Part shown: piece after piece, positions 3,100-64,000 of the stretch
How the letters are laid out: the number at the start of each line of letters is the position of its first letter
How positions within the stretch are numbered: position 1 is the first letter of the stretch
NCBI GenBank assembly: GCA_001783805.1
Contig: MFNS01000001.1
Location: forward strand, 192,649 to 256,648
Direction: 5' to 3'
DNA length: 64,000 bases
From: Candidatus Levybacteria bacterium RIFCSPHIGHO2_01_FULL_40_16
Lineage (GTDB): Bacteria; Patescibacteriota; Microgenomatia; Levybacterales; UBA12049
Made by a program: the position numbers and the translations under genes
Notes under the pieces: generated by a model
Databases searched by the model: none
The model's input: only the letters and a program-made list of their open reading frames with translations
Told to the model about the DNA's origin: nothing

Positions 3100-3387
3100 A
3101 TGGGCGAACTTGAAACATTCACTGACGTAAAAACGGTGAGAGCAATAATCGGGGACACCATTGTTGGTGTTTTTCAGCGTCCTGTTGTATTAGCAACGGA
3201 TTGGAAGGTCTATCTTAAGTCTGATGATCCCATTGAAGAAAAACGAAGAGAGGATATTAGGCAAGAATTGTGCAATAAATCGGCGGCAGGCGCAACTGAG
3301 GAAGCAACCTTTTTAGAGTTTCATAATAAGATTGGTAGTAAAATAGACATTACTATCGGCGATGTTGGGCTATTTCCTCACGGGTAA
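3100..3387 (+). CDS. hypothetical protein
   Basis: 95-aa ORF with a TTGAAT-16-TATAAT promoter upstream; no recognisable domain. Confidence 0.3.
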   Translation: MGELETFTDVKTVRAIIGDTIVGVFQRPVVLATDWKVYLKSDDPIEEKRREDIRQELCNKSAAGATEEATFLEFHNKIGSKIDITIGDVGLFPHG

Positions 3388-3403
3388 GTTGCAAGATTGA
3401 AGT

Positions 3404-5419
3404 TTAAGATAATTTTAAAGATTTGATTTGGTCGCGGAGAAATGCGGCTTTTTCGAAATTCAAAGTCTGGGCGGCAATTTTCATTTCTTTTCGTAACTTT
3501 TTAATCAAATCTTCCCTTTCGTCAGGAAGCAAAACTTCTTTTTTGGCAAGGTCAAGATAAAAATTCAAACTGCCTTTGTAATTTTTACTTTCCGTAATTT
3601 CTTCGTCAATTAATTTTTCTCTAATTTGTTTTTGTATTCCGATTGGTTTTTTGTGATATTTTTTGTTGTATTTCAGCTGGATATTCCTGCGTCTTTCAAC
3701 CTCATTAATTGCATTTTTCATCGAACCTGTGACATTGTCAGCATACATAATTACCTCCGCATCAACATGTCTGGCCGCTCTTCCCATAGTTTGAATAAGC
3801 GATGTTCTACTGCGCAGAAATCCTTCTTTGTCCGCATCCAAAATCGCAACCAAAGAAACTTCGGGTAGATCCAATCCTTCACGCAGCAAATTAATTCCAA
3901 CCAGGACATCGTATTCGCCTTTTCTCAATCTATCCAAAATATCTTGTCTCTCTAGCGTTTGAATGTCGGAGTGCAGATACGCGACTTTAACATTTTGTTC
4001 TTCCAAATAACTGGAAAGCTCTTCCGCCATTCGTTTGGTTAAGGTAGTTACCAAAATTCTTTGTTTTTTGGCAACTCTTTTATTAATTTCATCAATCAGA
4101 TCTATAATTTGTCCTTTGGTTGGTTTGATAATTACTTTCGGATCAACCAAATTGGTTGGGCGAATCAATTGTTCGACAACCGCTCCGTCAGCTGACGGAT
4201 TGTCTTTGGCTAAAGATAACTCGTACTCGTCAGGAGTGGCGCTGACATAAGTAATTTGGTTAACTCTTTGCATAAATTCAGTAAATTTGAGCGGACGGTT
4301 GTCCAATGCGGAGGGAAGACGGAAACCATAATCAATTAAAGTGTTCTTTCTTGATTGATCTCCGTTGTACATTCCTCTTATTTGTGGAATTGTAATATGT
4401 GATTCATCAATAATTGTCAGGAAGTTTTTTGATGCATGCTTAAAATAGTCTAGTAAGGTATAGGGCGGCTGGCCGGGCGCTCTACCGTCAAAATAACGCG
4501 AATAATTTTCAATTCCATTGACGTAGCCTACTTCTTTGATCATTTCCAAATCAAAATTCGTCCGTTGTTCCAGCCTGTGGGCTTCCAAATTTTTACCAAC
4601 GCTTTTTAAAAATTTAACTTGTGTTTCCATGTCTTTTCTGATTATCGGAAACACATTATTGTAAGTATGCGGATCAGTCATATAATGTTTGGCAGGATAA
4701 ATCACCGTACCCTTCAAAATTGCAATTGTGTCGCCGGTTAAAGAATTAAACTCAGAAAGTTTATAGAGCTTATTCTTTTTAAGCTCAATTCTAATTCCTG
4801 TGTCTTTATAAGCCGGAAAAAGATCAATTGATTCGCCTCTAACCCGAAAACCGCCTCTGGCGAAAGCATATTCATTGCGTTCGTATTGCAGGTCGGTCAG
4901 ACGGATCATGATAGATTTTAAATCAGTCTTCATTCCGGGGACTAGCTCCATGACAAATTTTCCGTATTCAACCGGGGAGCCTAAATTGTAAATACAGGAG
5001 ACCGAAGCAACAACAATTACATCTTTTCTAGTTAATAAATTGGTTGTTGCGGAAAGCCGTAATTTATCAATTTCCTCATTAATTTCCGCCTCTTTTTCGA
5101 TGTAGGTGTCGCTTTGCGGGATATAAGCTTCGGGCTGGTAATAATCGTAGTAGGAGACAAAATAGGAAACGGCATTTTGCGGGAAAAAATCCCTGAATTC
5201 CTGATAAAGTTGTGCGGCCAGAGTTTTATTATGCGAAATTACCAGTGTTGGTTTTTGAACTTTTTGAATTACATTAGCCATGGTGAAAGTTTTACCAGAT
5301 CCGGTCACGCCTAGCAGAACCTGATTCCGGACATTGTTTTCAATGTTTTTCACCAGTTTTTCGATTGCCTGCGGCTGATCTCCGGTCGGTTTAAAATCCG
5401 ACTTCAGCTTAAATTTCAT
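3404..5419 (-). CDS. uvrB: excinuclease ABC subunit B
   Basis: GDQPQAI...GVTGSGKT Walker A, YYDYYQPEAYIP, and the DGRAPGQPP motif. Confidence 0.9.
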   Translation of the reverse strand: MKFKLKSDFKPTGDQPQAIEKLVKNIENNVRNQVLLGVTGSGKTFTMANVIQKVQKPTLVISHNKTLAAQLYQEFRDFFPQNAVSYFVSYYDYYQPEAYIPQSDTYIEKEAEINEEIDKLRLSATTNLLTRKDVIVVASVSCIYNLGSPVEYGKFVMELVPGMKTDLKSIMIRLTDLQYERNEYAFARGGFRVRGESIDLFPAYKDTGIRIELKKNKLYKLSEFNSLTGDTIAILKGTVIYPAKHYMTDPHTYNNVFPIIRKDMETQVKFLKSVGKNLEAHRLEQRTNFDLEMIKEVGYVNGIENYSRYFDGRAPGQPPYTLLDYFKHASKNFLTIIDESHITIPQIRGMYNGDQSRKNTLIDYGFRLPSALDNRPLKFTEFMQRVNQITYVSATPDEYELSLAKDNPSADGAVVEQLIRPTNLVDPKVIIKPTKGQIIDLIDEINKRVAKKQRILVTTLTKRMAEELSSYLEEQNVKVAYLHSDIQTLERQDILDRLRKGEYDVLVGINLLREGLDLPEVSLVAILDADKEGFLRSRTSLIQTMGRAARHVDAEVIMYADNVTGSMKNAINEVERRRNIQLKYNKKYHKKPIGIQKQIREKLIDEEITESKNYKGSLNFYLDLAKKEVLLPDEREDLIKKLRKEMKIAAQTLNFEKAAFLRDQIKSLKLS

Positions 5420-5526: not shown

Positions 5527-6156
5527 ATGCCGGGAGTAATTTACAAAAAAGAAAGAGAAGTTTTGGAATACCTTGCCCAATTTCAAAGACAATTTGGCTA
5601 TTCTCCAACGCTTAAGGAGATAGCGGGAGCTACAGGACACAGAAGCAATTCTACGGTTCATTCGTTAATTAAGTCTTTGGTTGATAAGGGCTATATCCAA
5701 AAAGTTGATGGGAATAACAGAGTGCTTAAAATTGTTGATCAGAAAGTTACATTCTCTCTGTTAGGAAGTACCGCTTCAATAGAGCTTCCTCTGATGGGCT
5801 ATATTGCCGCAGGAAAGCCCCTGGAGCCTCACAGCGACCCCAATGCTACATTTCATGTATCGGCATCAATGATATCCGGCAAAAAAACCGCTTATGTTTT
5901 GCAGGTCAAAGGCAATTCCATGATTGAGGATGGGATATTTGACGGAGATTTTGTGGTTATTGAAAAAGCAGAAACGGCGACAAATGGAGATATTGTGGTT
6001 GCTTTAGTTGATAATAATATGGCGACTTTAAAAAGATTTTTTAATGAAAATGGAAAGATTGTTTTGAAACCTGCTAATGCAGAAATGGCACCGATTTACC
6101 CGAATACCCTTTTAATTCAGGGAAAAGCTGTGGGAATTGTCCGCAAATTCTCCTAA
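5527..6156 (+). CDS. lexA: LexA repressor (S24 peptidase)
   Basis: N-terminal wHTH (YSPTLKEIAGATGHRSNSTVHSLIKSL); C-terminal S24 domain (VKGNSMIEDGIFDGDFVVI...LKRF). Confidence 0.85.
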   Translation: MPGVIYKKEREVLEYLAQFQRQFGYSPTLKEIAGATGHRSNSTVHSLIKSLVDKGYIQKVDGNNRVLKIVDQKVTFSLLGSTASIELPLMGYIAAGKPLEPHSDPNATFHVSASMISGKKTAYVLQVKGNSMIEDGIFDGDFVVIEKAETATNGDIVVALVDNNMATLKRFFNENGKIVLKPANAEMAPIYPNTLLIQGKAVGIVRKFS

Positions 6157-6158
6157 AA

Positions 6159-6785
6159 TTACTGCTTTTTGAATTTTATTATTTTGAGTTTGTGGTTGAC
6201 GTAAAATAATATAGCGAAGATCAGCAAAATCGCTAAGATTAAGTCGAATCGATGAAAATATACACCAATTGTATTCCATTTATTCCCAAGATAAACTCCG
6301 ATATAAGTTAAAAATGCTGACCAAATTAAAGAGCCAAGAAATGTGTAAATTGAAAATTTCCAAAAATTCATCTCAGCTAACCCGCAAGGCAAGGAGATAA
6401 ATGTCCTGACTGCAGGAAGCATACGGCTGAAAAAAGCAATTTTATCACCATATTTATTAAACCATTTCAGAGAGCGTTCGTATTCGTGGATAGTGATTAA
6501 AATAAATTTGCCATATTTTTTAATTAAGCTGACGATTATTGTCTCCTCCAAAAAATATCCAACTGCATAGGCAAGCCAAGATCCTACTAAATTCGCTAAG
6601 GCTCCGACGACGATAACAGCTATAAAAGAAAATTGACCTGTAGTTACCAAATATCCCGCAAAAGGCATTGTTACCTCGGATGGGATAGGTATTAAAGCCG
6701 ATTCTAAAGCCATGAGTAGGAATACGCCAAGATAGCCTGAGGATTGGATAAGTTGTATAATAAAGCCTGACAACAATTCAATCAT
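6159..6785 (-). CDS. DedA/TVP38-family membrane protein (start trimmed to MIELLSG to avoid overlap with rsmI)
   Basis: GYLGVFLLMALESALIPIPSEV DedA motif; multiple TM helices. Confidence 0.65.
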   Translation of the reverse strand: MIELLSGFIIQLIQSSGYLGVFLLMALESALIPIPSEVTMPFAGYLVTTGQFSFIAVIVVGALANLVGSWLAYAVGYFLEETIIVSLIKKYGKFILITIHEYERSLKWFNKYGDKIAFFSRMLPAVRTFISLPCGLAEMNFWKFSIYTFLGSLIWSAFLTYIGVYLGNKWNTIGVYFHRFDLILAILLIFAILFYVNHKLKIIKFKKQ

Positions 6786-7491
6786 GGGAATTCTATACAT
6801 TGTAGCAACACCAATCGGCAACATGCAAGACATCACTCTGCGTGCAATTAAAATTTTGCAAAGCGTAGATGCAGTTGTCTGTGAAGATACACGTAAAACC
6901 GGTTTACTTCTGCAAAATCTAGCCTCGAAAGGGGACGCCTTGCAAAAAAAAATACCTAAACCTAGGCTGATTTCTTATTATGAGCAAAATGAATTGCAGA
7001 GAATTCCGGAAGTGATTAACGCCTTAAGAAATGGACTAAGCATTGCTTTGGTATCAGACGCGGGAACTCCGACAATTTCCGATCCGGGATTCAAACTTGT
7101 TCGCGAATGCATTAAGGAGGGGATTAAAGTTGAATCAATTCCCGGGTCTTCCTCGGCAATTGCAGCTCTGACCGTTTCAGGTTTACCAACAGATAAATTT
7201 TTATTTATCGGATATCCCCCGAAAAAACCCGGCCACAGAAAAACATTATTTGAAAATCTCATAAAATTACCAATCAAAACCACCATTATTCTTTTCGAAG
7301 GACCGCATCACTTAATTAGAACTCTTGAAGGAATGACAGAAATCTTCGGCGACATCGATATTGTCATTTGCAGAGAGCTAACTAAAATTTATGAAGAAAT
7401 CCGCCGCGAAAGAATCTCATTCTCGGTTGAACACTTTACCAAAACCATTCCAAGAGGCGAGTTTGTTATTTTATTTAATCTTAATAATTAG
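6784..7491 (+). CDS. rsmI: 16S rRNA (cytidine1402-2'-O)-methyltransferase
   Basis: LYIVATPIGNMQDITLRAIKIL...VVCEDTRKTG tetrapyrrole-methylase fold typical of RsmI. Confidence 0.8.
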   Translation: MGILYIVATPIGNMQDITLRAIKILQSVDAVVCEDTRKTGLLLQNLASKGDALQKKIPKPRLISYYEQNELQRIPEVINALRNGLSIALVSDAGTPTISDPGFKLVRECIKEGIKVESIPGSSSAIAALTVSGLPTDKFLFIGYPPKKPGHRKTLFENLIKLPIKTTIILFEGPHHLIRTLEGMTEIFGDIDIVICRELTKIYEEIRRERISFSVEHFTKTIPRGEFVILFNLNN

Positions 7492-8090
7492 AGGATTTTT
7501 TTGGAGATGACGTTGCCATTATTGTCAATTTCAAATAAATCAACTTCACCGACTTCAATTTCCAATTCTGATACACCTTCATCGTTAATGTTTTCAAGAT
7601 ATTTGATTAGAGCTCTTAGGGAATTTCCGTGGGCAATGATAAGAACATTTTTACCTTTTTTCAATTCTGGCAAAATTTCAGCTTGATAATAGGGGATTGT
7701 CCGATCATATACGTCTTTCAAGCTTTCTCCATTTTCAATTGGTGAATCCCAGCTTCTGCGAATTTTTAAAAATTGTTCGTTTCCGACTTCTTTTTGAATT
7801 TCCCACTTATTTTTTCCCGTATAAATTCCGTAATCGCGTTCGTTTAAAGCTTTGTCTTCGAAAGTAGGAATATCTATTTTTAAAACATTTTTTATCTCAT
7901 CAAGTGTTTGCTTTGCACGTATCAATACGGACGCAAAAGCAAGATCAATAGACATGCCTTTTAACTTTTCTCCGGCAAACCTGGACTGCTGTATTCCTTT
8001 TTCACTTAAACCAATATCGGTTAACCCTGTCCACAGGCCCTTTGCGTTCCATTCCGATTCTCCGTGTCTGACCAAAATTAAATTCGCCAC
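7488..8090 (-). CDS. gpmA: histidine-phosphatase family phosphoglycerate mutase
   Basis: LILVRHGESEWNAKGLWTG catalytic His motif. Confidence 0.75.
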   Translation of the reverse strand: MANLILVRHGESEWNAKGLWTGLTDIGLSEKGIQQSRFAGEKLKGMSIDLAFASVLIRAKQTLDEIKNVLKIDIPTFEDKALNERDYGIYTGKNKWEIQKEVGNEQFLKIRRSWDSPIENGESLKDVYDRTIPYYQAEILPELKKGKNVLIIAHGNSLRALIKYLENINDEGVSELEIEVGEVDLFEIDNNGNVISKKIL

Positions 8091-8097
8091 ACTTTCT

Positions 8098-9351
8098 TTA
8101 TAAAATTTTTAACTGATTTTCTATTTGCAAAAGTCTATTGTATTTCGCAATATTCTCACCCCTGGCTAAACTGCCTATTTTAATGTAATCTGCCGAAACC
8201 GAAACTGAAAAATCAGACAAAAAATCATCATTCGTCTCACTCTCTCTATGGGAAACAGTTACTTTTAAGCCTGTTTCTTTAGCTGCTTCCGCGACCGCCA
8301 AAGACTCGATGACCGTACCTATCTGGCTTGGTTTCACCACAATGGCGTTGACGGCTTTTTTGTCAATAGCCATTTGCAGCCTATATGGGTTGGTTGCGAT
8401 AAGGTCGCCCCCGGCAACTATAGTTGTGCCGGACAATTTTTCAAAAAGTGATGTCCATCCCTCCCAATCATCCTGATACAAAGGATCCTCTAAATATAAA
8501 AGATGAATATTCCGATTTAGTTCTTCGTAATAACTTATGAGATCTTTTGAGGATAGAGCCGTAGCACTATCTTTAAGATGATAATTTCCATTCTTGAAAA
8601 AGCTTGAAGCCCGGCTATTTAATCCAAAGAAAACATCAAAGCCAAGCTTGACATAGGTATTTCCGATTGCCTGCTCAATTAAAGAAAATGCTTCTTTATT
8701 TGTTGTCAGATCGGGAGTGAATCCTTCTTCGTATTCATCCAGCATCCTGGCATATTTTGTTTCAATAACCTGTTTGAGCGATTTCCGGACTGCTTCTCCG
8801 ATTTGGATAGATTCCAAATAAGATTTTGACGAGGCAGGAACAATCAGAAATTCATGAAAATCCGCTGAATGGCCTCTTGCTCCATCAATAAGATTAAAAA
8901 TTGGGGTAGGAATCTTAAGCGCTTCGCGATCTTTTTTTATAAATTGCCTAAGATACAGAAAAAGAGGAAGTACGGAGCTTTCTGCACCGGCTTTTGCAAC
9001 CGCCATCGACACTGCCAAAGTAGCATTCGTTCCAAGGCGTGATTTGTTTTGCGTACCGTCAAGATCAATCATAATCTTGTCTATTTCCGGCTGACGTTCC
9101 GCCTCTTTTCCTATTAGGGCAGGGGCAATAACATTTTTAATATTGCTTATTGCTTTGCTTACTCCCTGGCCTTCAAAAGTATTTTGGTCATTATCTTTTA
9201 AGGCAACTGCTTCATAGTTACTTATTTTTTCTCCAGTCGGACATGAAGCTACTCCAATTTTTCCATCATTGAGTATAATTGTTGCCTCAATTGTCGGAAG
9301 TCCTTTGGCATTAAGGATTTCCCGTGCATCAACTGCTTTTATTTTTGTCAT
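8098..9351 (-). CDS. eno: enolase
   Basis: N-terminal ARE(I)LNAKGLPTIEA; full-length enolase architecture. Confidence 0.85.
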   Translation of the reverse strand: MTKIKAVDAREILNAKGLPTIEATIILNDGKIGVASCPTGEKISNYEAVALKDNDQNTFEGQGVSKAISNIKNVIAPALIGKEAERQPEIDKIMIDLDGTQNKSRLGTNATLAVSMAVAKAGAESSVLPLFLYLRQFIKKDREALKIPTPIFNLIDGARGHSADFHEFLIVPASSKSYLESIQIGEAVRKSLKQVIETKYARMLDEYEEGFTPDLTTNKEAFSLIEQAIGNTYVKLGFDVFFGLNSRASSFFKNGNYHLKDSATALSSKDLISYYEELNRNIHLLYLEDPLYQDDWEGWTSLFEKLSGTTIVAGGDLIATNPYRLQMAIDKKAVNAIVVKPSQIGTVIESLAVAEAAKETGLKVTVSHRESETNDDFLSDFSVSVSADYIKIGSLARGENIAKYNRLLQIENQLKIL

Positions 9352-9364
9352 ACTTCAGCTATTA

Positions 9365-10465
9365 TTAATATATTAGTCCACCGGAATATATTTCTCCACT
9401 CACTCCATTAACAGTAACAATATTGCCGTTTTGAAACACCCGGGTCGCATTTTTGACTCCCTCTACTGTGGGAATATGAAAATCTTTTCTGTAAAGAAAT
9501 TTTTCATAGGAGTTTGGCAAGAATGAATCAACAACTACAGCTTTCGCATTTTTCATCATACCAAACAATGAGTGATCGAGATTATGAAGTACAATTACAT
9601 CGCCATTTTTTATTTTCGGGTCATAATTGAAATTATTTAAAATTTTAACACGTCCCGTAACTATTCCCGGATTAATTGAGACTCCTTTAGCGATGATTTT
9701 GGGGGTTTTATAAGACGTGGCTTTATTGTCAAATTTGTTTACTATTCCTGTAAAAGGATTGACTTTTGTGATGATAATTTTGTCTTTTATTACAATATAT
9801 TCAATTTCTTTTGGGAAATAAGAGTGTTTTTGGATTATTTTGCAGTAATCGTTTAATTTATCCATTTGCACCTTAGTTAATCTCTTATCGAAGACAGGAT
9901 TGCCTGTTACAATCTTTCCTTTTACTCCGGCTTTAATTTCTTCTTGTACTACAATTGCAACAGGGTTTTTGAAAGATGAAGCCCAAATCGTTTTTATTTT
10001 TAGAATTAAATTCGTATCGCCTTTTATATTTGTAAAAACAATAGATTTATTGTCGGAAGATGATGAAAAAATATTTAAGGGGCGGTTCTTAAATAATCCC
10101 GATAGATTTTTATAGTAATTATGTAATTCCGAAACCAATATTTGCGGAATATGGCTATGCATTATATGTCTTTGAAGCAAATTATCGGTTGAATTAGATA
10201 GCGCAGGGTGTTTTAGGAACGGAGTTTTATATATATTTTTATCAATATCGATTAGCCGTAAGAATTCTTTAAAGAAATTGATCGTAATTACAAATCCTTT
10301 CGGAAGCGGAATTCCTAATTTCCAGAGCATTCCGAGTTCTTGTGCTTTTTTGCCGACCAGATCTTCATCCGTTTTAAAAACTTGCGATAAATCTACGATG
10401 TGATGATTTAACCTCATACTATTTATTATGCGGAATTTCCCAAAATTATCAAGGGGAGTTAGCAA
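9365..10465 (-). CDS. PEP-utilising enzyme fragment: PPDK_N-like ATP-binding domain plus PEP-utiliser mobile domain, no PEP/pyruvate-binding TIM-barrel domain
   Basis: VGKKAQELG...GIPLPKGFVIT (PPDK_N); the C-terminal ...KDFHIPTVEG resembles the phosphohistidine domain, with the usual TSH possibly replaced (PNSY). Confidence 0.55.
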   Translation of the reverse strand: MLTPLDNFGKFRIINSMRLNHHIVDLSQVFKTDEDLVGKKAQELGMLWKLGIPLPKGFVITINFFKEFLRLIDIDKNIYKTPFLKHPALSNSTDNLLQRHIMHSHIPQILVSELHNYYKNLSGLFKNRPLNIFSSSSDNKSIVFTNIKGDTNLILKIKTIWASSFKNPVAIVVQEEIKAGVKGKIVTGNPVFDKRLTKVQMDKLNDYCKIIQKHSYFPKEIEYIVIKDKIIITKVNPFTGIVNKFDNKATSYKTPKIIAKGVSINPGIVTGRVKILNNFNYDPKIKNGDVIVLHNLDHSLFGMMKNAKAVVVDSFLPNSYEKFLYRKDFHIPTVEGVKNATRVFQNGNIVTVNGVSGEIYSGGLIY

Positions 10466-10468
10466 TTC

Positions 10469-11848
10469 CTATGAGAGTCTTTTGATAAGCCTTATTAATT
10501 CTGATTTTTTTCGTTCGGTTTCTTTTTTGGAATATGACTCAACATTTAATCTCAATAATGGCTCTGTGTTTGAAGTTCTGACGGAAAATCTCCAGGTTGG
10601 ATAATTTACTGCGATTCCATCCATTTCGTCCAAAACACCGTCTTTGTATTTCTCCTTCACGGCTGCAATTATAGCTTTTCCATCTTTTACTTTAAAATTA
10701 AATTCTCCCGATTCATAGGACCTCGTATAATCTTTTACAATTTTTGAAAATGGTTTATTCTTACTAGATAAAACCTTCAGTACGGTAAGTATCATGGGAA
10801 TTTGAGATTCGGAATTTCCTGTTTCCCTAAAAAAATAGTGCCCGGATGATTCACCGGCAAAAATTCCGCCATATTTATTCATAGCTTCGGTAATATATGC
10901 GTGTCCAACTCTTGTAATCATCATTTTTCCGCCATTTTCTTGAATTATTTTTTTTGGAGTGAAGATATAACGTATATCTATAAGAATTTGGGCGCCTTTG
11001 TTTTTTTTAAGCAAATCTTTCGCAACGATAGAGGTAATAATTGTCGGCGGCACAATATTTCCTTTCTCATCAATGAAAAATAAACGATCTCCATCTCCAT
11101 CAGGGGCAAGGCCTAAATCTGCTTTTTCCTGAACGACTCTTTTCTGTAAATCAACTAACGTTTCTTTTTGAAGGGGATCCGGCTGATGGGCGGGGAATGT
11201 TCCATCTAATTTAAAGTTCATCCTGACTAGATCCATTGGAATTTTCCTTGCGACAGCGTTAATATATTGAGACCCCATGGCATTAGCAGCATCGGCCACA
11301 ATCTTAAACATCTTTATCTTAGGATTGCCGGCGATTCTTAGCGAATTAACAAATTCATCATCTAAAATTCCTCTTTTTTGCGAGACAGTTCCTTTACCTT
11401 TGGGTTGAATAAATTTTCCTCCAAGCGCTATTTGCTTAATCTCCTCAAGCCCTGTAGGCTTACCTATCTTTATAAGACCTTTTTCGCCTTTCTGAACAAT
11501 TTTTAGACCGTTCCATTCTTTTGGATTGTGAGACGCTGTAATTTGAATTCCGGCATCATATCCATAATGAGAAACAGAAAAATAAAATGTTGGCGTAGAA
11601 ACAATTCCAACATCAACTATGTTTGCGCCCAAACCTTCCAAGGTTTCTATCACGACTTTTGTAAGGGAGGGGGATGAGGTACGCATATCTGTCCCCACAA
11701 CCAACGTAAAAGGCTTCTTTTCCCCGTAGTCTTTGACAAGGAAAGTATAAATTGCCTTAACAATCAAAACTATATTTTCCTCATTGATATCTTTTGGATA
11801 AATTGCTCGGATATCGTAACCCTTGAATATTCCGGGGTTTATATTCAT
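10469..11848 (-). CDS. phosphoglucomutase/phosphomannomutase (alpha-D-phosphohexomutase)
   Basis: GIQITASHNPKEWNGLK active-site Ser motif; four-domain length. Confidence 0.8.
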   Translation of the reverse strand: MNINPGIFKGYDIRAIYPKDINEENIVLIVKAIYTFLVKDYGEKKPFTLVVGTDMRTSSPSLTKVVIETLEGLGANIVDVGIVSTPTFYFSVSHYGYDAGIQITASHNPKEWNGLKIVQKGEKGLIKIGKPTGLEEIKQIALGGKFIQPKGKGTVSQKRGILDDEFVNSLRIAGNPKIKMFKIVADAANAMGSQYINAVARKIPMDLVRMNFKLDGTFPAHQPDPLQKETLVDLQKRVVQEKADLGLAPDGDGDRLFFIDEKGNIVPPTIITSIVAKDLLKKNKGAQILIDIRYIFTPKKIIQENGGKMMITRVGHAYITEAMNKYGGIFAGESSGHYFFRETGNSESQIPMILTVLKVLSSKNKPFSKIVKDYTRSYESGEFNFKVKDGKAIIAAVKEKYKDGVLDEMDGIAVNYPTWRFSVRTSNTEPLLRLNVESYSKKETERKKSELIRLIKRLS

Positions 11849-57991: not shown

Positions 57992-58172
57992 TGGACTCTA
58001 GAGGATTTGAACCTCTGACATCTTCGATGTAAACGAAGCGCCCGGCCTGACTGGACTTTGTGGACCCGAGAGGATTCGAACCTCTGACCTTCTCAGTGTA
58101 AATGAGACGCTCTACCAACTGAGCCACGGGTCCATTCAAAGTCGGGCAGGTCTACCGCTGAGCTAAGAGTCC
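57992..58172 (-). ncRNA. split tRNA-Val-like gene: 5' half (acceptor GGACTCT plus D-arm, 58146-58172) and 3' half (57992-58060: anticodon arm with TAC, T-arm AGAGG-TTCAAAT-CCTCT, acceptor AGAGTCC-A), with a complete tRNA-Val nested between
   Basis: The outer acceptor strands pair 7/7 (one G-U); the 5' half matches the Pro-locus 5' half over TAGCTCAG..GGTAGACCTGCCCG; the nested tRNA is flanked by GACTTTG / CAAAGTC. Confidence 0.4.
58061..58133 (-). tRNA. tRNA-Val (anticodon TAC), intact, nested in the split locus
   Basis: GGACCCG acceptor, TGGCTCAGTTGGTAGAGC D-arm, loop TTTACAC, T-loop TTCGAAT. Confidence 0.85.
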
Positions 58173-62913: not shown

Positions 62914-63510
62914 ATGAAAAAGTCAAAAAGCAAGGTAAAACACGTAAAAAACCCGCTGGAGGAATTACTTAATCTGGACGATATCCTTGGATTTTCCAAA
63001 ACTTCGGAAAAACAGAAAAAAAATCAGGAAACAGTGTTGGTTGAGGGCCAAGAGGTAAGTCTCGCAGAGCTTCAAGAGATAAATTCGTCAGCTGTTGAAG
63101 AAAAAAAAGAAGAGAAAATAGTAATAGAACCAGGCATTAATTATTCCGCAGACATAATCCATTCAGAAGAGAAGGCAATCAGCCGTGAAAACCGGGAAAT
63201 TGAAGTGCAGTTGCAGGAAATAATGACCGAAATTAAAAAATTAGCTGACAGCTCCAAGGAATTGCAAATGCAATTTAAAGAAGTTGCAGTCGAGCAATAC
63301 GTAGTAAAACCCGGAAAATATCACAAGAACTTTTTCTCATGGCTTCTCTCCATAGTTAAAGCTGCGAGAATGAAGGTTGAAGATTCCGGCGCATGGCTGG
63401 CGGCAATGCACAGCAAGAAAAAATCAAAAGAGTATTGGGCAATGAGTAAAAAAGCCGGAACATCTTTCAGCCTTTCCAACGAAAGAAATGTTGCCACCCA
63501 AGTTGGATAA
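62914..63510 (+). CDS. hypothetical coiled-coil protein
   Basis: 198-aa K/E-rich ORF. Confidence 0.3.
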   Translation: MKKSKSKVKHVKNPLEELLNLDDILGFSKTSEKQKKNQETVLVEGQEVSLAELQEINSSAVEEKKEEKIVIEPGINYSADIIHSEEKAISRENREIEVQLQEIMTEIKKLADSSKELQMQFKEVAVEQYVVKPGKYHKNFFSWLLSIVKAARMKVEDSGAWLAAMHSKKKSKEYWAMSKKAGTSFSLSNERNVATQVG

Positions 63511-63558
63511 GCAATCTATTGCAAAAAGAAAAAGGATACTATAAAATTTAATTATTAA

Positions 63559-63624
63559 ATGAATAAGCAAAATAGATCGATTATTGAAATTATTGCTTCC
63601 CAAGAGGGAGGTGTGCTTGCGTAA
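63559..63624 (+). CDS. Ile-rich leader peptide (MNKQNRSIIEIIASQEGGVLA) of a transcription attenuator
   Basis: Four ATT Ile codons in six positions (63580-63594), directly upstream of alternative stems 1:2 (63595-600/63606-611), 2:3 (63606-611/63649-654) and 3:4. Confidence 0.45.
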   Translation: MNKQNRSIIEIIASQEGGVLA

Positions 63625-63648
63625 CTTAAATTAATTACGAAACACTAG

Positions 63649-63671
63649 CCTCCCCAACGGGAGGTTTTTTT
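63649..63671 (+). terminator. attenuator terminator hairpin CCTCCC-CAAC-GGGAGG plus T7
   Basis: Perfect 6-bp GC-rich stem followed by 7 T, 13 nt before the downstream start codon. Confidence 0.6.
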
Positions 63672-63683
63672 ATGTCTTAAATT

Positions 63684-64000
63684 ATGAAAGAAAGATTTAT
63701 AAAAATATATGATACAACTCTGAGGGATGGTGCCCAAACGCCTGGCTTAACGCTGACAACAGGCAATAAATTAAAAATCGCTCAAAAACTTGCAGATCTT
63801 GGTTTTCATTATATCGAGGGTGGATGGCCCGGAGCAAATCCGACAGACTCCGAATTTTTTAAACGAATAAAGCAGGAGGTTGACCTTAATAACTCAACTC
63901 TTGCTGCTTTTGGAATGACGGGAAGAATAGGAATAAAAGCAGAGGATGACGAAGGACTTCAAACATTACTAAATAGCCAAACCGGATTGATAACCATTTT
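63684..64000 (+). CDS. citramalate / 2-isopropylmalate synthase family protein (3'-truncated by the window edge)
   Basis: KIYDTTLRDGAQTPG HMGL-like N-terminal motif. Confidence 0.7.
   Translation, partial: MKERFIKIYDTTLRDGAQTPGLTLTTGNKLKIAQKLADLGFHYIEGGWPGANPTDSEFFKRIKQEVDLNNSTLAAFGMTGRIGIKAEDDEGLQTLLNSQTGLITI

Follow-up and report, generated by a model that had tools for sequence, protein, structure and literature searches.

A candidate isoleucine-responsive attenuator upstream of the citramalate synthase gene in Candidatus Levybacteria

The leader region upstream of cimA

The DNA analysed here is a stretch of 64,000 nucleotides (nt) from a Candidatus Levybacteria genome (contig MFNS01000001.1), called the window throughout, and it ends within cimA, a gene for citramalate synthase of which the 5' part (63684 to 64000) is included before the gene runs off the window. 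Between cimA and its upstream neighbour, a gene for a DUF5660 protein that ends at 63510, lies a leader organized like the classical amino acid attenuators: a short open reading frame (ORF) dense in isoleucine codons is followed by RNA segments that can pair in alternative ways, one of which makes an intrinsic terminator. All coordinates are positions in the window, and the leader elements, like cimA, lie on the + strand.

A promoter scan placed a promoter-like site at 63519 to 63547 (TTGCAA as -35 box, TAAAAT as -10 box, a 17-nt spacer, 9/12 match). The ATG of the leader ORF lies 11 nt 3' of the -10 box, which predicts a 5' untranslated region of about 4 to 6 nt, and no Shine-Dalgarno (SD) sequence is seen before it. 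The stretch from promoter to ATG, TATAAAATTTAATTATTAAATGAA, is nearly identical in the paralogous modules described below, and a pattern search of the window returned no copy of it besides the leader's own. The ORF itself (63559 to 63624) has 21 codons plus TAA and encodes the peptide MNKQNRSIIEIIASQEGGVLA, in which isoleucine occupies codons 8, 9, 11 and 12; the corresponding block, ATT ATT GAA ATT ATT, spans 63580 to 63594. The initial annotation of this DNA had already picked out the ORF and its ATT run, counting isoleucine at four of six positions; the actual density is higher, with four isoleucines in five consecutive codons.

Directly after the last isoleucine codon comes segment 1 (GCTTCCC, 63595 to 63601), the anti-antiterminator partner of segment 2 (GGGAGGT, 63606 to 63612), which may pair instead with segment 3 (GCCTCCC, 63648 to 63654). 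Segment 3 is at once the 3' arm of the antiterminator and the 5' arm of the terminator; a CAAC loop separates it from segment 4 (GGGAGGT, 63659 to 63665), the 3' arm of the terminator, which runs into a T7 tract at 63665 to 63671. A central hairpin (CGTAA/TTACG, 63620 to 63639) contains in its 5' arm the leader stop codon, TAA at 63622 to 63624, which is 11 nt 3' of segment 2. In a terminator scan, the terminator appears as an 8-bp stem (63647 to 63666) followed by T7, and it ends 13 nt 5' of the ATG of cimA. This ATG, at 63684, is the start of the gene, since an in-frame TAA at 63678 rules out an earlier one. It too is preceded by no visible SD sequence, and the spacer before it (63672 to 63683) holds a two-codon mini-ORF, ATG TCT TAA, followed by ATT.

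The 105 N-terminal CimA residues encoded in the window have TIGR00977 as their best match (1.9e-31, versus 3.2e-18 for the LeuA models). The DUF5660 neighbour protein is 100% identical to one in Candidatus Levybacteria bacterium RIFCSPLOWO2_01_FULL_39_24 (MFOW01000003.1, L165 below), and the full CimA of that genome (514 residues) scores 471 bits against TIGR00977, for a curated cut-off of 450, which bears out the earlier assignment of the downstream gene to the isoleucine pathway. The host belongs to Candidatus Levybacteria, in the Microgenomates of the Patescibacteria, or candidate phyla radiation (CPR).

Folding with ViennaRNA recovers all the alternative helices that had been proposed: 1:2 (-10.4 kcal/mol), the 2:3 antiterminator (-17.6 kcal/mol, including the pairing of GTG 63613-63615 with CAC 63643-63645 and the central hairpin) and the 3:4 terminator hairpin (-13.0 kcal/mol). 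When the terminator 3' arm is left out, 7 of the 8 nt of its 5' arm pair with GGGAGGT. Each segment was found where the initial annotation had placed it, but the three stems are not all mutually exclusive, as it had supposed: 1:2 is compatible with 3:4, and 2:3 is the one helix that rules out the other two, in keeping with the textbook scheme. Because segment 1 resembles segment 3 and segment 2 resembles segment 4, the unconstrained minimum is a nested fold, 1:4 plus 2:3, forming a long hairpin that abuts the U tract; according to the model, this fold would still put a helix beside that tract. We also modelled the position of a ribosome on the leader, its footprint sizes being assumptions. With the ribosome at the stop codon the terminator alone forms, and a ribosome on the second isoleucine pair covers segment 1 while leaving segment 2 free.

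The question arises as to how often such an arrangement would be met by chance. The window has a GC content of 37.7%, isoleucine makes up 9.1% of its codons and ATT is the commonest isoleucine codon. Among all ATG ORFs of 10 to 40 codons, in all frames of the whole window, only 3 of 742 contain at least four isoleucines in five codons. Counting both strands, the 64 kb contain three strong intrinsic terminators, strictly defined, that of the leader among them. We then kept the terminator fixed and shuffled the leader upstream of it 300 times, preserving dinucleotides: the 2:3 duplex has an energy of -13.2 kcal/mol against a shuffle mean of -6.0, and no shuffle was as complementary to the terminator 5' arm, while the 1:2 pairing was equalled in 5 of the 300. 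The fold of the whole leader reaches -31.9 kcal/mol (z = -2.8). Since isoleucine-dense ORFs, strong terminators and equal complementarity in shuffles are all rare, a chance origin of the leader is unlikely. As for the missing SD sequences, an SD-like 4-mer is found upstream of only 5 of the 48 long ORFs in the window.

Leaders of cimA and pheA in CPR relatives

Relatives were found through the neighbouring DUF5660 protein and then through full-length CimA, and the comparison covers the eight distinct CPR cimA loci that could be obtained, the window included. At all eight, a short ORF with an isoleucine run, followed by an antiterminator and a terminator, stands directly 5' of cimA. The other leaders, with the CimA identity to the window, are those of L171 (81%, MRQSRLLINIILISNP), L172 (59%, MGSLILAKKIHTIIISRLVG), L173/L174 (58%, MGSLALRIKIHTIIISR), L175 (GCA_964504985.1; 55%, MLISIKEIIEIIITSQKGGLAR), L176 (GCA_900218215.1; 52%, MNAQAITRIIIEIIIPKKGGIFA), L004, a Patescibacteria metagenome-assembled genome (53% over the region available, MSWLIFSINPIIIIEPLMGKG), and L177, of the Parcubacteria group (43 to 44%, MQNIARKFFEIISIVIIRRQFFARVYA). 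Three of the eight share an IIEII core, and the isoleucine block is identical in nucleotides between the window, L175 and L176; across the whole set, isoleucine is spelled ATT, ATC or ATA in varying order. As the codons differ in this way, it is the coding of isoleucine that is conserved, and not a nucleotide string.

The genes around cimA also differ. Five neighbourhoods are unlike the DUF5660 context of the window, with respectively a gene for an SBP_bac_5 (solute-binding) protein and tRNAs, tRNAs and proS-like genes, small ORFs and pheA, ftsZ and ileS, or a deaminase gene, so that the leader-terminator unit moves together with cimA. Terminator stems vary and yet stay complementary (CCTCCC/GGGAGG, GGCCTCC/GGAGGCC, CCCCGC/GCGGGG, CCCGCC/GGCGGG, CTAGCC/GGCTAG, CTCTTC/GAAGAG and AGCCCGG/CCGGGTT), and segment 2 is altered in step with the stem at each locus. 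In L175, the equivalent of the central hairpin has a different sequence (GGTAAG/CTTACC) and also encloses the stop codon. Boxes of the -35/-10 type lie 6 to 13 nt ahead of the leader start codon in L171, L175, L176 and L177, as well as in two related modules introduced below, that of L166 and the pheA leader of L175.

A sequence-only MAFFT alignment of eight related modules was submitted to RNAalifold, which recovers the 1:2 and 3:4 helices. Pairing in the two helices together amounts to 93.8%, six pairs are doubly changed, and none of 500 shuffles did as well; the terminator helix alone is 96% paired, with three doubly changed pairs.

We scanned 165 kb of CPR sequence, on both strands, for short ORFs with at least four identical residues in six codons followed by a terminator. 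Apart from one false match inside a gene, the isoleucine type was met at cimA only. The same scan returned a leader of another specificity in L175, at 7639 to 7757: a 21-codon ORF encoding MNNLRKFFYFFFAFRKEGGLV, with the run FFYFFFAF, and a terminator, directly 5' of a prephenate dehydratase gene, pheA (7768 to 8700; NF008865, 235.8 bits for a cut-off of 219). Its scaffold matches that of the window in length, in the GCC-TTCC motif, in GAGGGAGGT and in the CCTCCC-loop-GGGAGGTTTTTTTATG terminator. That the codon run changes with the pathway on one scaffold is, at the level of sequence, the strongest argument for a sensor ORF read by the ribosome.

Outside the CPR, the 105-residue CimA fragment was used as query, and we examined 80 loci from one genome per species and 80 metagenome loci, among the matches listed, all with at most 57% identity. 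L004 was the only true positive among the 80 genome loci listed, and none of the 79 non-CPR genome loci among these matches combines an isoleucine-run ORF and a terminator at cimA; what looked like further positives proved to be the C-terminal part of a leuB or aspartate kinase gene lying upstream. Among the 80 metagenome contigs listed, seven (L082, L106, L122, L135, L156, L157 and L159) do have an isoleucine-rich leader and a terminator 5' of cimA. These contigs have a higher GC content, and their leaders are longer and very rich in isoleucine, for example MFKNIAITTIIIISIIIEGRHMSDLMMV: 27 to 28 codons with 9 to 11 isoleucines in L106 and L135, and 21 to 41 codons in the other five. Their terminators are long (13 to 15 bp, of the AATCCGTTAYCAG type). 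In L106 (5802 to 12310) and L135 (5835 to 10617) the leader precedes a cimA-(leuA)-leuC-leuD-leuB operon. An isoleucine run and a terminator are thus shared with the window, but the leaders have no sequence similarity to that of the window, so that isoleucine-sensing leaders would have arisen upstream of cimA more than once, in these cases where the citramalate route forms one operon.

Proposed mechanism and rival explanations

We consider it probable, and hold with good confidence, that the element is a functional isoleucine-responsive leader-peptide transcription attenuator of cimA. It belongs with the classical attenuators because an isoleucine-codon ORF, a terminator, an antiterminator, the placement of 1:2, a pathway gene and conservation are all present. 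The textbook layout read from this leader in the initial annotation has held up in that anatomy, rarity and comparison agree, and the leader ORF, whose conservation in relatives was the obvious check, recurs at every CPR cimA locus compared.

Transcription would start a few bases 5' of the leader ATG, and a ribosome would translate the 21-codon ORF while RNA polymerase moves on. With Ile-tRNA in plentiful supply, the ribosome would arrive at the stop codon and cover segment 2, and the 3:4 hairpin with its U7 tract would terminate transcription 13 nt before cimA. If the leader is not translated, 1:2 and 3:4, or the nested 1:4 plus 2:3 fold beside the U tract, would likewise lead to termination. 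When Ile-tRNA is scarce, the ribosome would stall on the second ATT pair (63589 to 63594) and its footprint would hide segment 1; 2:3 could then pair, segment 4 would be left partnerless and polymerase would read into cimA. We infer from the sequence that the leader ORF is translated, that this translation is coupled to transcription, that stalling has the geometry described and that the element responds in vivo.

Several observations weigh against this interpretation. In the absence of an SD sequence, the leader ORF must start on a nearly leaderless transcript. A modelled stall on the first isoleucine pair leaves segment 1 free, so that only the second pair is well placed. With segment 1 masked, the full-length leader at equilibrium adopts the terminator plus a small hairpin (-19.7 kcal/mol, versus -17.6 for 2:3 alone). 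With the terminator favoured at equilibrium by about 2 kcal/mol, read-through can only come about kinetically, 2:3 being formed before segment 4 is made, and we do not claim thermodynamic switching, the equilibrium fold with masked segment 1 not favouring the antiterminator. In the E. coli trp attenuator the terminator is likewise more stable than the antiterminator, and a kinetic outcome is accepted there. The comparative support for the 2:3 helix is moderate: it is 76.8% paired in the eight-module alignment, and its covariation score is reached by 8 of 500 shuffles, a column-based count that understates the duplexes of the individual sequences, as segment 2 is misaligned by MAFFT in some of the modules. 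In L176 the 2:3 complementarity is weak, with 81 of 300 shuffles as good. The local metabolic logic is incomplete, because cimA stands alone: no leuB, leuC or leuD homologue was found in the window or in the sequences flanking the CPR loci (about 165 kb), and there are no ilv neighbours at the locus. Moreover, in the ilvB leader of Streptomyces coelicolor, mutating the candidate regulatory codons is reported to have left regulation unaffected (PMC1262725).

Three other explanations were considered. Depending on where it sits in the leader or the mini-ORF, the ribosome might act mainly after transcription, by altering access to the cimA start or the stability of the mRNA. Only 13 nt separate this SD-less start from the U tract, and GGGAGG in segment 4 is itself SD-like and stands 7 nt before the ATG at 63672. 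In related modules (L171, L175, L176 and L166), a motif (A/G)TG-NNN-AAA-(A/T)TA-TGA directly follows the U tract, with the gene ATG overlapping the TGA, and its counterpart in the window (63672 to 63686) is ATG TCT TAA ATT ATG. Ribosomes might use it as a mini-ORF to re-initiate without an SD sequence, or it may be no more than an A/U-rich start region; the conservation of (A/G)TG-NNN-AAA-ATA-TGA over the gene start speaks for control at this step. The hairpin with U7 is, however, a canonical terminator, one of very few in the genome, kept at every locus, and the cimA start codon lies outside its stem. We therefore regard a mainly post-transcriptional control as unlikely. Less likely still is a switch independent of translation, in which a metabolite, a tRNA or a protein would flip the same hairpins and the ORF would be incidental. 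A riboswitch or a T-box-like element could in principle work with the alternative helices alone, and the nucleotide identity of the isoleucine block between the window, L175 and L176 is compatible with this. Yet no Rfam leader family reaches its gathering threshold in the whole window or in nine related loci, where only tRNAs do, and the T-box covariance model has no match in 63300 to 64000 even at E <= 10. In addition, the leader is short, about 115 nt, and lacks a conserved core of unpaired bases, the in-frame isoleucine run (ATT, ATC, ATA) persists across unrelated leader sequences, and the same scaffold carries a phenylalanine run 5' of pheA.

The arrangement could finally be no more than the terminator of the DUF5660 gene followed by the promoter region of cimA, with an isoleucine-rich ORF arising by chance in an AT-rich genome. 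The base composition and the prevalence of ATT given above would ease such an origin, and the terminator is 137 nt after the DUF5660 stop. However, the promoter-like site precedes the terminator instead of following it, the ORF-terminator unit accompanies cimA in the five other neighbourhoods, which have no DUF5660 gene, and the rates expected by chance are very low, whether judged from the ORF census, the terminator count, the CPR scan or the shuffles; we find this explanation scarcely credible. We accordingly reject three readings, namely that the ORF arose by chance, that the terminator simply ends the upstream gene, and that the element is a riboswitch or T-box, and retain the isoleucine-responsive attenuator.

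Known leaders and the recurring scaffold

In a search of 63300 to 64000 at E <= 10, the best-scoring Rfam leader families were Phe_leader (RF01859, 26.5 bits for a gathering threshold of 55) and Trp_leader (RF00513, 18.9 for 41), both sub-threshold matches being driven by the terminator. The likeness to the enterobacterial attenuators (trp, his, thr, leu, pheA, ilvGMEDA, ilvBN) is one of layout: a short ORF with clustered regulatory codons, 1:2, 2:3 and 3:4 pairings, an intrinsic terminator before the first structural gene, and a stop codon at which a ribosome completing the peptide covers segment 2. Enterobacterial ilv leaders mix isoleucine, valine and leucine codons, whereas the regulatory run in the window is of isoleucine only. 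The leader of the window further differs in being no sequence relative, in lacking an SD sequence and in preceding a lone cimA instead of heading an operon. The classical enterobacterial scheme is that of Yanofsky 1981, as cited in PMC4007540.

Ribosome-mediated attenuators of branched-chain amino acid genes are described outside the Proteobacteria for Corynebacterium ilvBNC, actinobacterial ilvB and leuA, the Staphylococcus aureus ilv-leu operon and Listeria Rli60 (PMC11857589, PMC1262725, PMC5794164, PMC5864092). Like the leader of the window, they have runs of isoleucine, leucine or valine codons 5' of branched-chain genes, but their phyla and their targets (ilvB, leuA, ilvD) are different. 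Comparable in their initiation are 14 predicted leaderless leader peptides 5' of aminoacyl-tRNA synthetase and amino acid biosynthesis genes in Deinococcus deserti (PMC4007540), and the leaderless short polycysteine ORFs that act as cysteine-responsive attenuators in mycobacteria (bioRxiv 10.1101/834739). These also start near the transcript 5' end without an SD sequence; the leaderless start proposed for the window is deduced from promoter spacing, and lineage and amino acid differ. Our literature search, whose coverage was incomplete, found nothing relevant on leader peptides of cimA or citramalate synthase or on attenuation in CPR/Patescibacteria, nor a publication describing the isoleucine-rich leaders of uncultured cimA-leu operons, and a perspective on Patescibacteria names riboswitches only as prospective tools (PMC11665869). 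The initial remark that attenuators are undocumented in CPR-like genomes therefore stands in so far as the host is a CPR bacterium and the search came back empty, within the limits of that coverage. The mechanism itself is classical; what appears to be undescribed is its lineage, its target gene and its family of scaffolds. The gain would thus be a wider known range and a better view of CPR physiology, with no new principle involved.

We lean, by a modest degree, towards the view that a modular family of near-leaderless, SD-less attenuators exists in Microgenomates/CPR, one scaffold being reused for isoleucine at cimA (and cimA-ileS), phenylalanine at pheA and leucine at small ORFs. Patescibacteria are described as devoid of most amino acid biosynthesis, and the regulation of their cell cycle as 'virtually unknown' (PMC11665869). 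If the family is real, these reduced and supposedly biosynthesis-poor bacteria would monitor individual aminoacyl-tRNA pools, and would keep amino-acid-specific control over orphan enzymes by means of transcription-translation coupling. At least locally, cimA, and pheA in L175, look like such orphan pathway enzymes; with the isoleucine attenuator and its phenylalanine twin, isolated biosynthetic genes would serve their cognate amino acid and answer to its supply. Indirectly, the attenuator would also argue that CPR bacteria couple transcription to translation and initiate on leaderless transcripts. The isoleucine leader supports naming the LeuA-family protein a citramalate synthase and not an isopropylmalate synthase. 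Compact native parts of this kind could, moreover, be of use in the genetic tools under development for CPR bacteria.

In L165, cimA is monocistronic, and beyond it lie a second promoter-leader-terminator module, a 59-residue ORF, a tRNA gene and thrS-infC-rpmI-rplT-pheST. This second module (12325 to 12480 in L165, about 1.4 kb past the end of the window; 1925 to 2080 in L171) has a leucine-rich ORF of 16 codons, MKIRCLSINLVLLLTR in L165 and MKIQSLLNNLILLLTR in L171, with stems of the form GGGCGGG / CCCGCC-loop-GGCGGG-T7, and it precedes a small ORF with a real SD sequence (AAGGAGGTG). The leader of the window is closer to those of L175 and L176, whose CimA is 52 to 55% identical, than to that of L171 (81%), and the stems of the L171 cimA leader are of the CCCGCC type, which they share with the second module of these genomes; this suggests, from sequence comparison, exchange between paralogous modules. 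L175 has a further unit at 4790 to 4942, a leucine-rich ORF of 33 codons (MSKVVTLKIENKLLLSLLLLTLLLGSFLGGLFR) with the terminator ACCTCCC-TAAG-GGGAGGT-T6, followed by an 81-residue ORF without family match. It could be a leucine leader or a small membrane peptide.

Two other Levybacteria, L166 and L169, have no cimA between DUF5660 and thrS, which indicates that the presence of cimA varies within the phylum. L166 carries at 3280 to 3460 a module almost identical to the L171 cimA leader, with the isoleucine run gone (MKPIAILNNRFLLTHP), 5' of a small cysteine-rich ORF, and L169 has tRNA genes at the cimA position (6591 to 6861). In L176, ileS (TIGR00392, 668 bits; 7647 to 10535) begins 47 nt after cimA (6061 to 7599), and the isoleucine leader may control the pair. 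The TTG called as the cimA start in that genome (6001) falls inside the terminator, and the ATG at 6061 is likely the true start. One metagenome contig, L081 (JGI Ga0209323_10189888), matches the window without a difference as far as about 63850, where it passes into unrelated GC-rich sequence, probably a chimeric assembly end, and it therefore adds nothing to the comparison. The window also has 18 tRNA matches, of which a partial one at 58000 to 58057 (32 bits, model positions 9 to 63) adjoins a full tRNA at 58061 to 58133.

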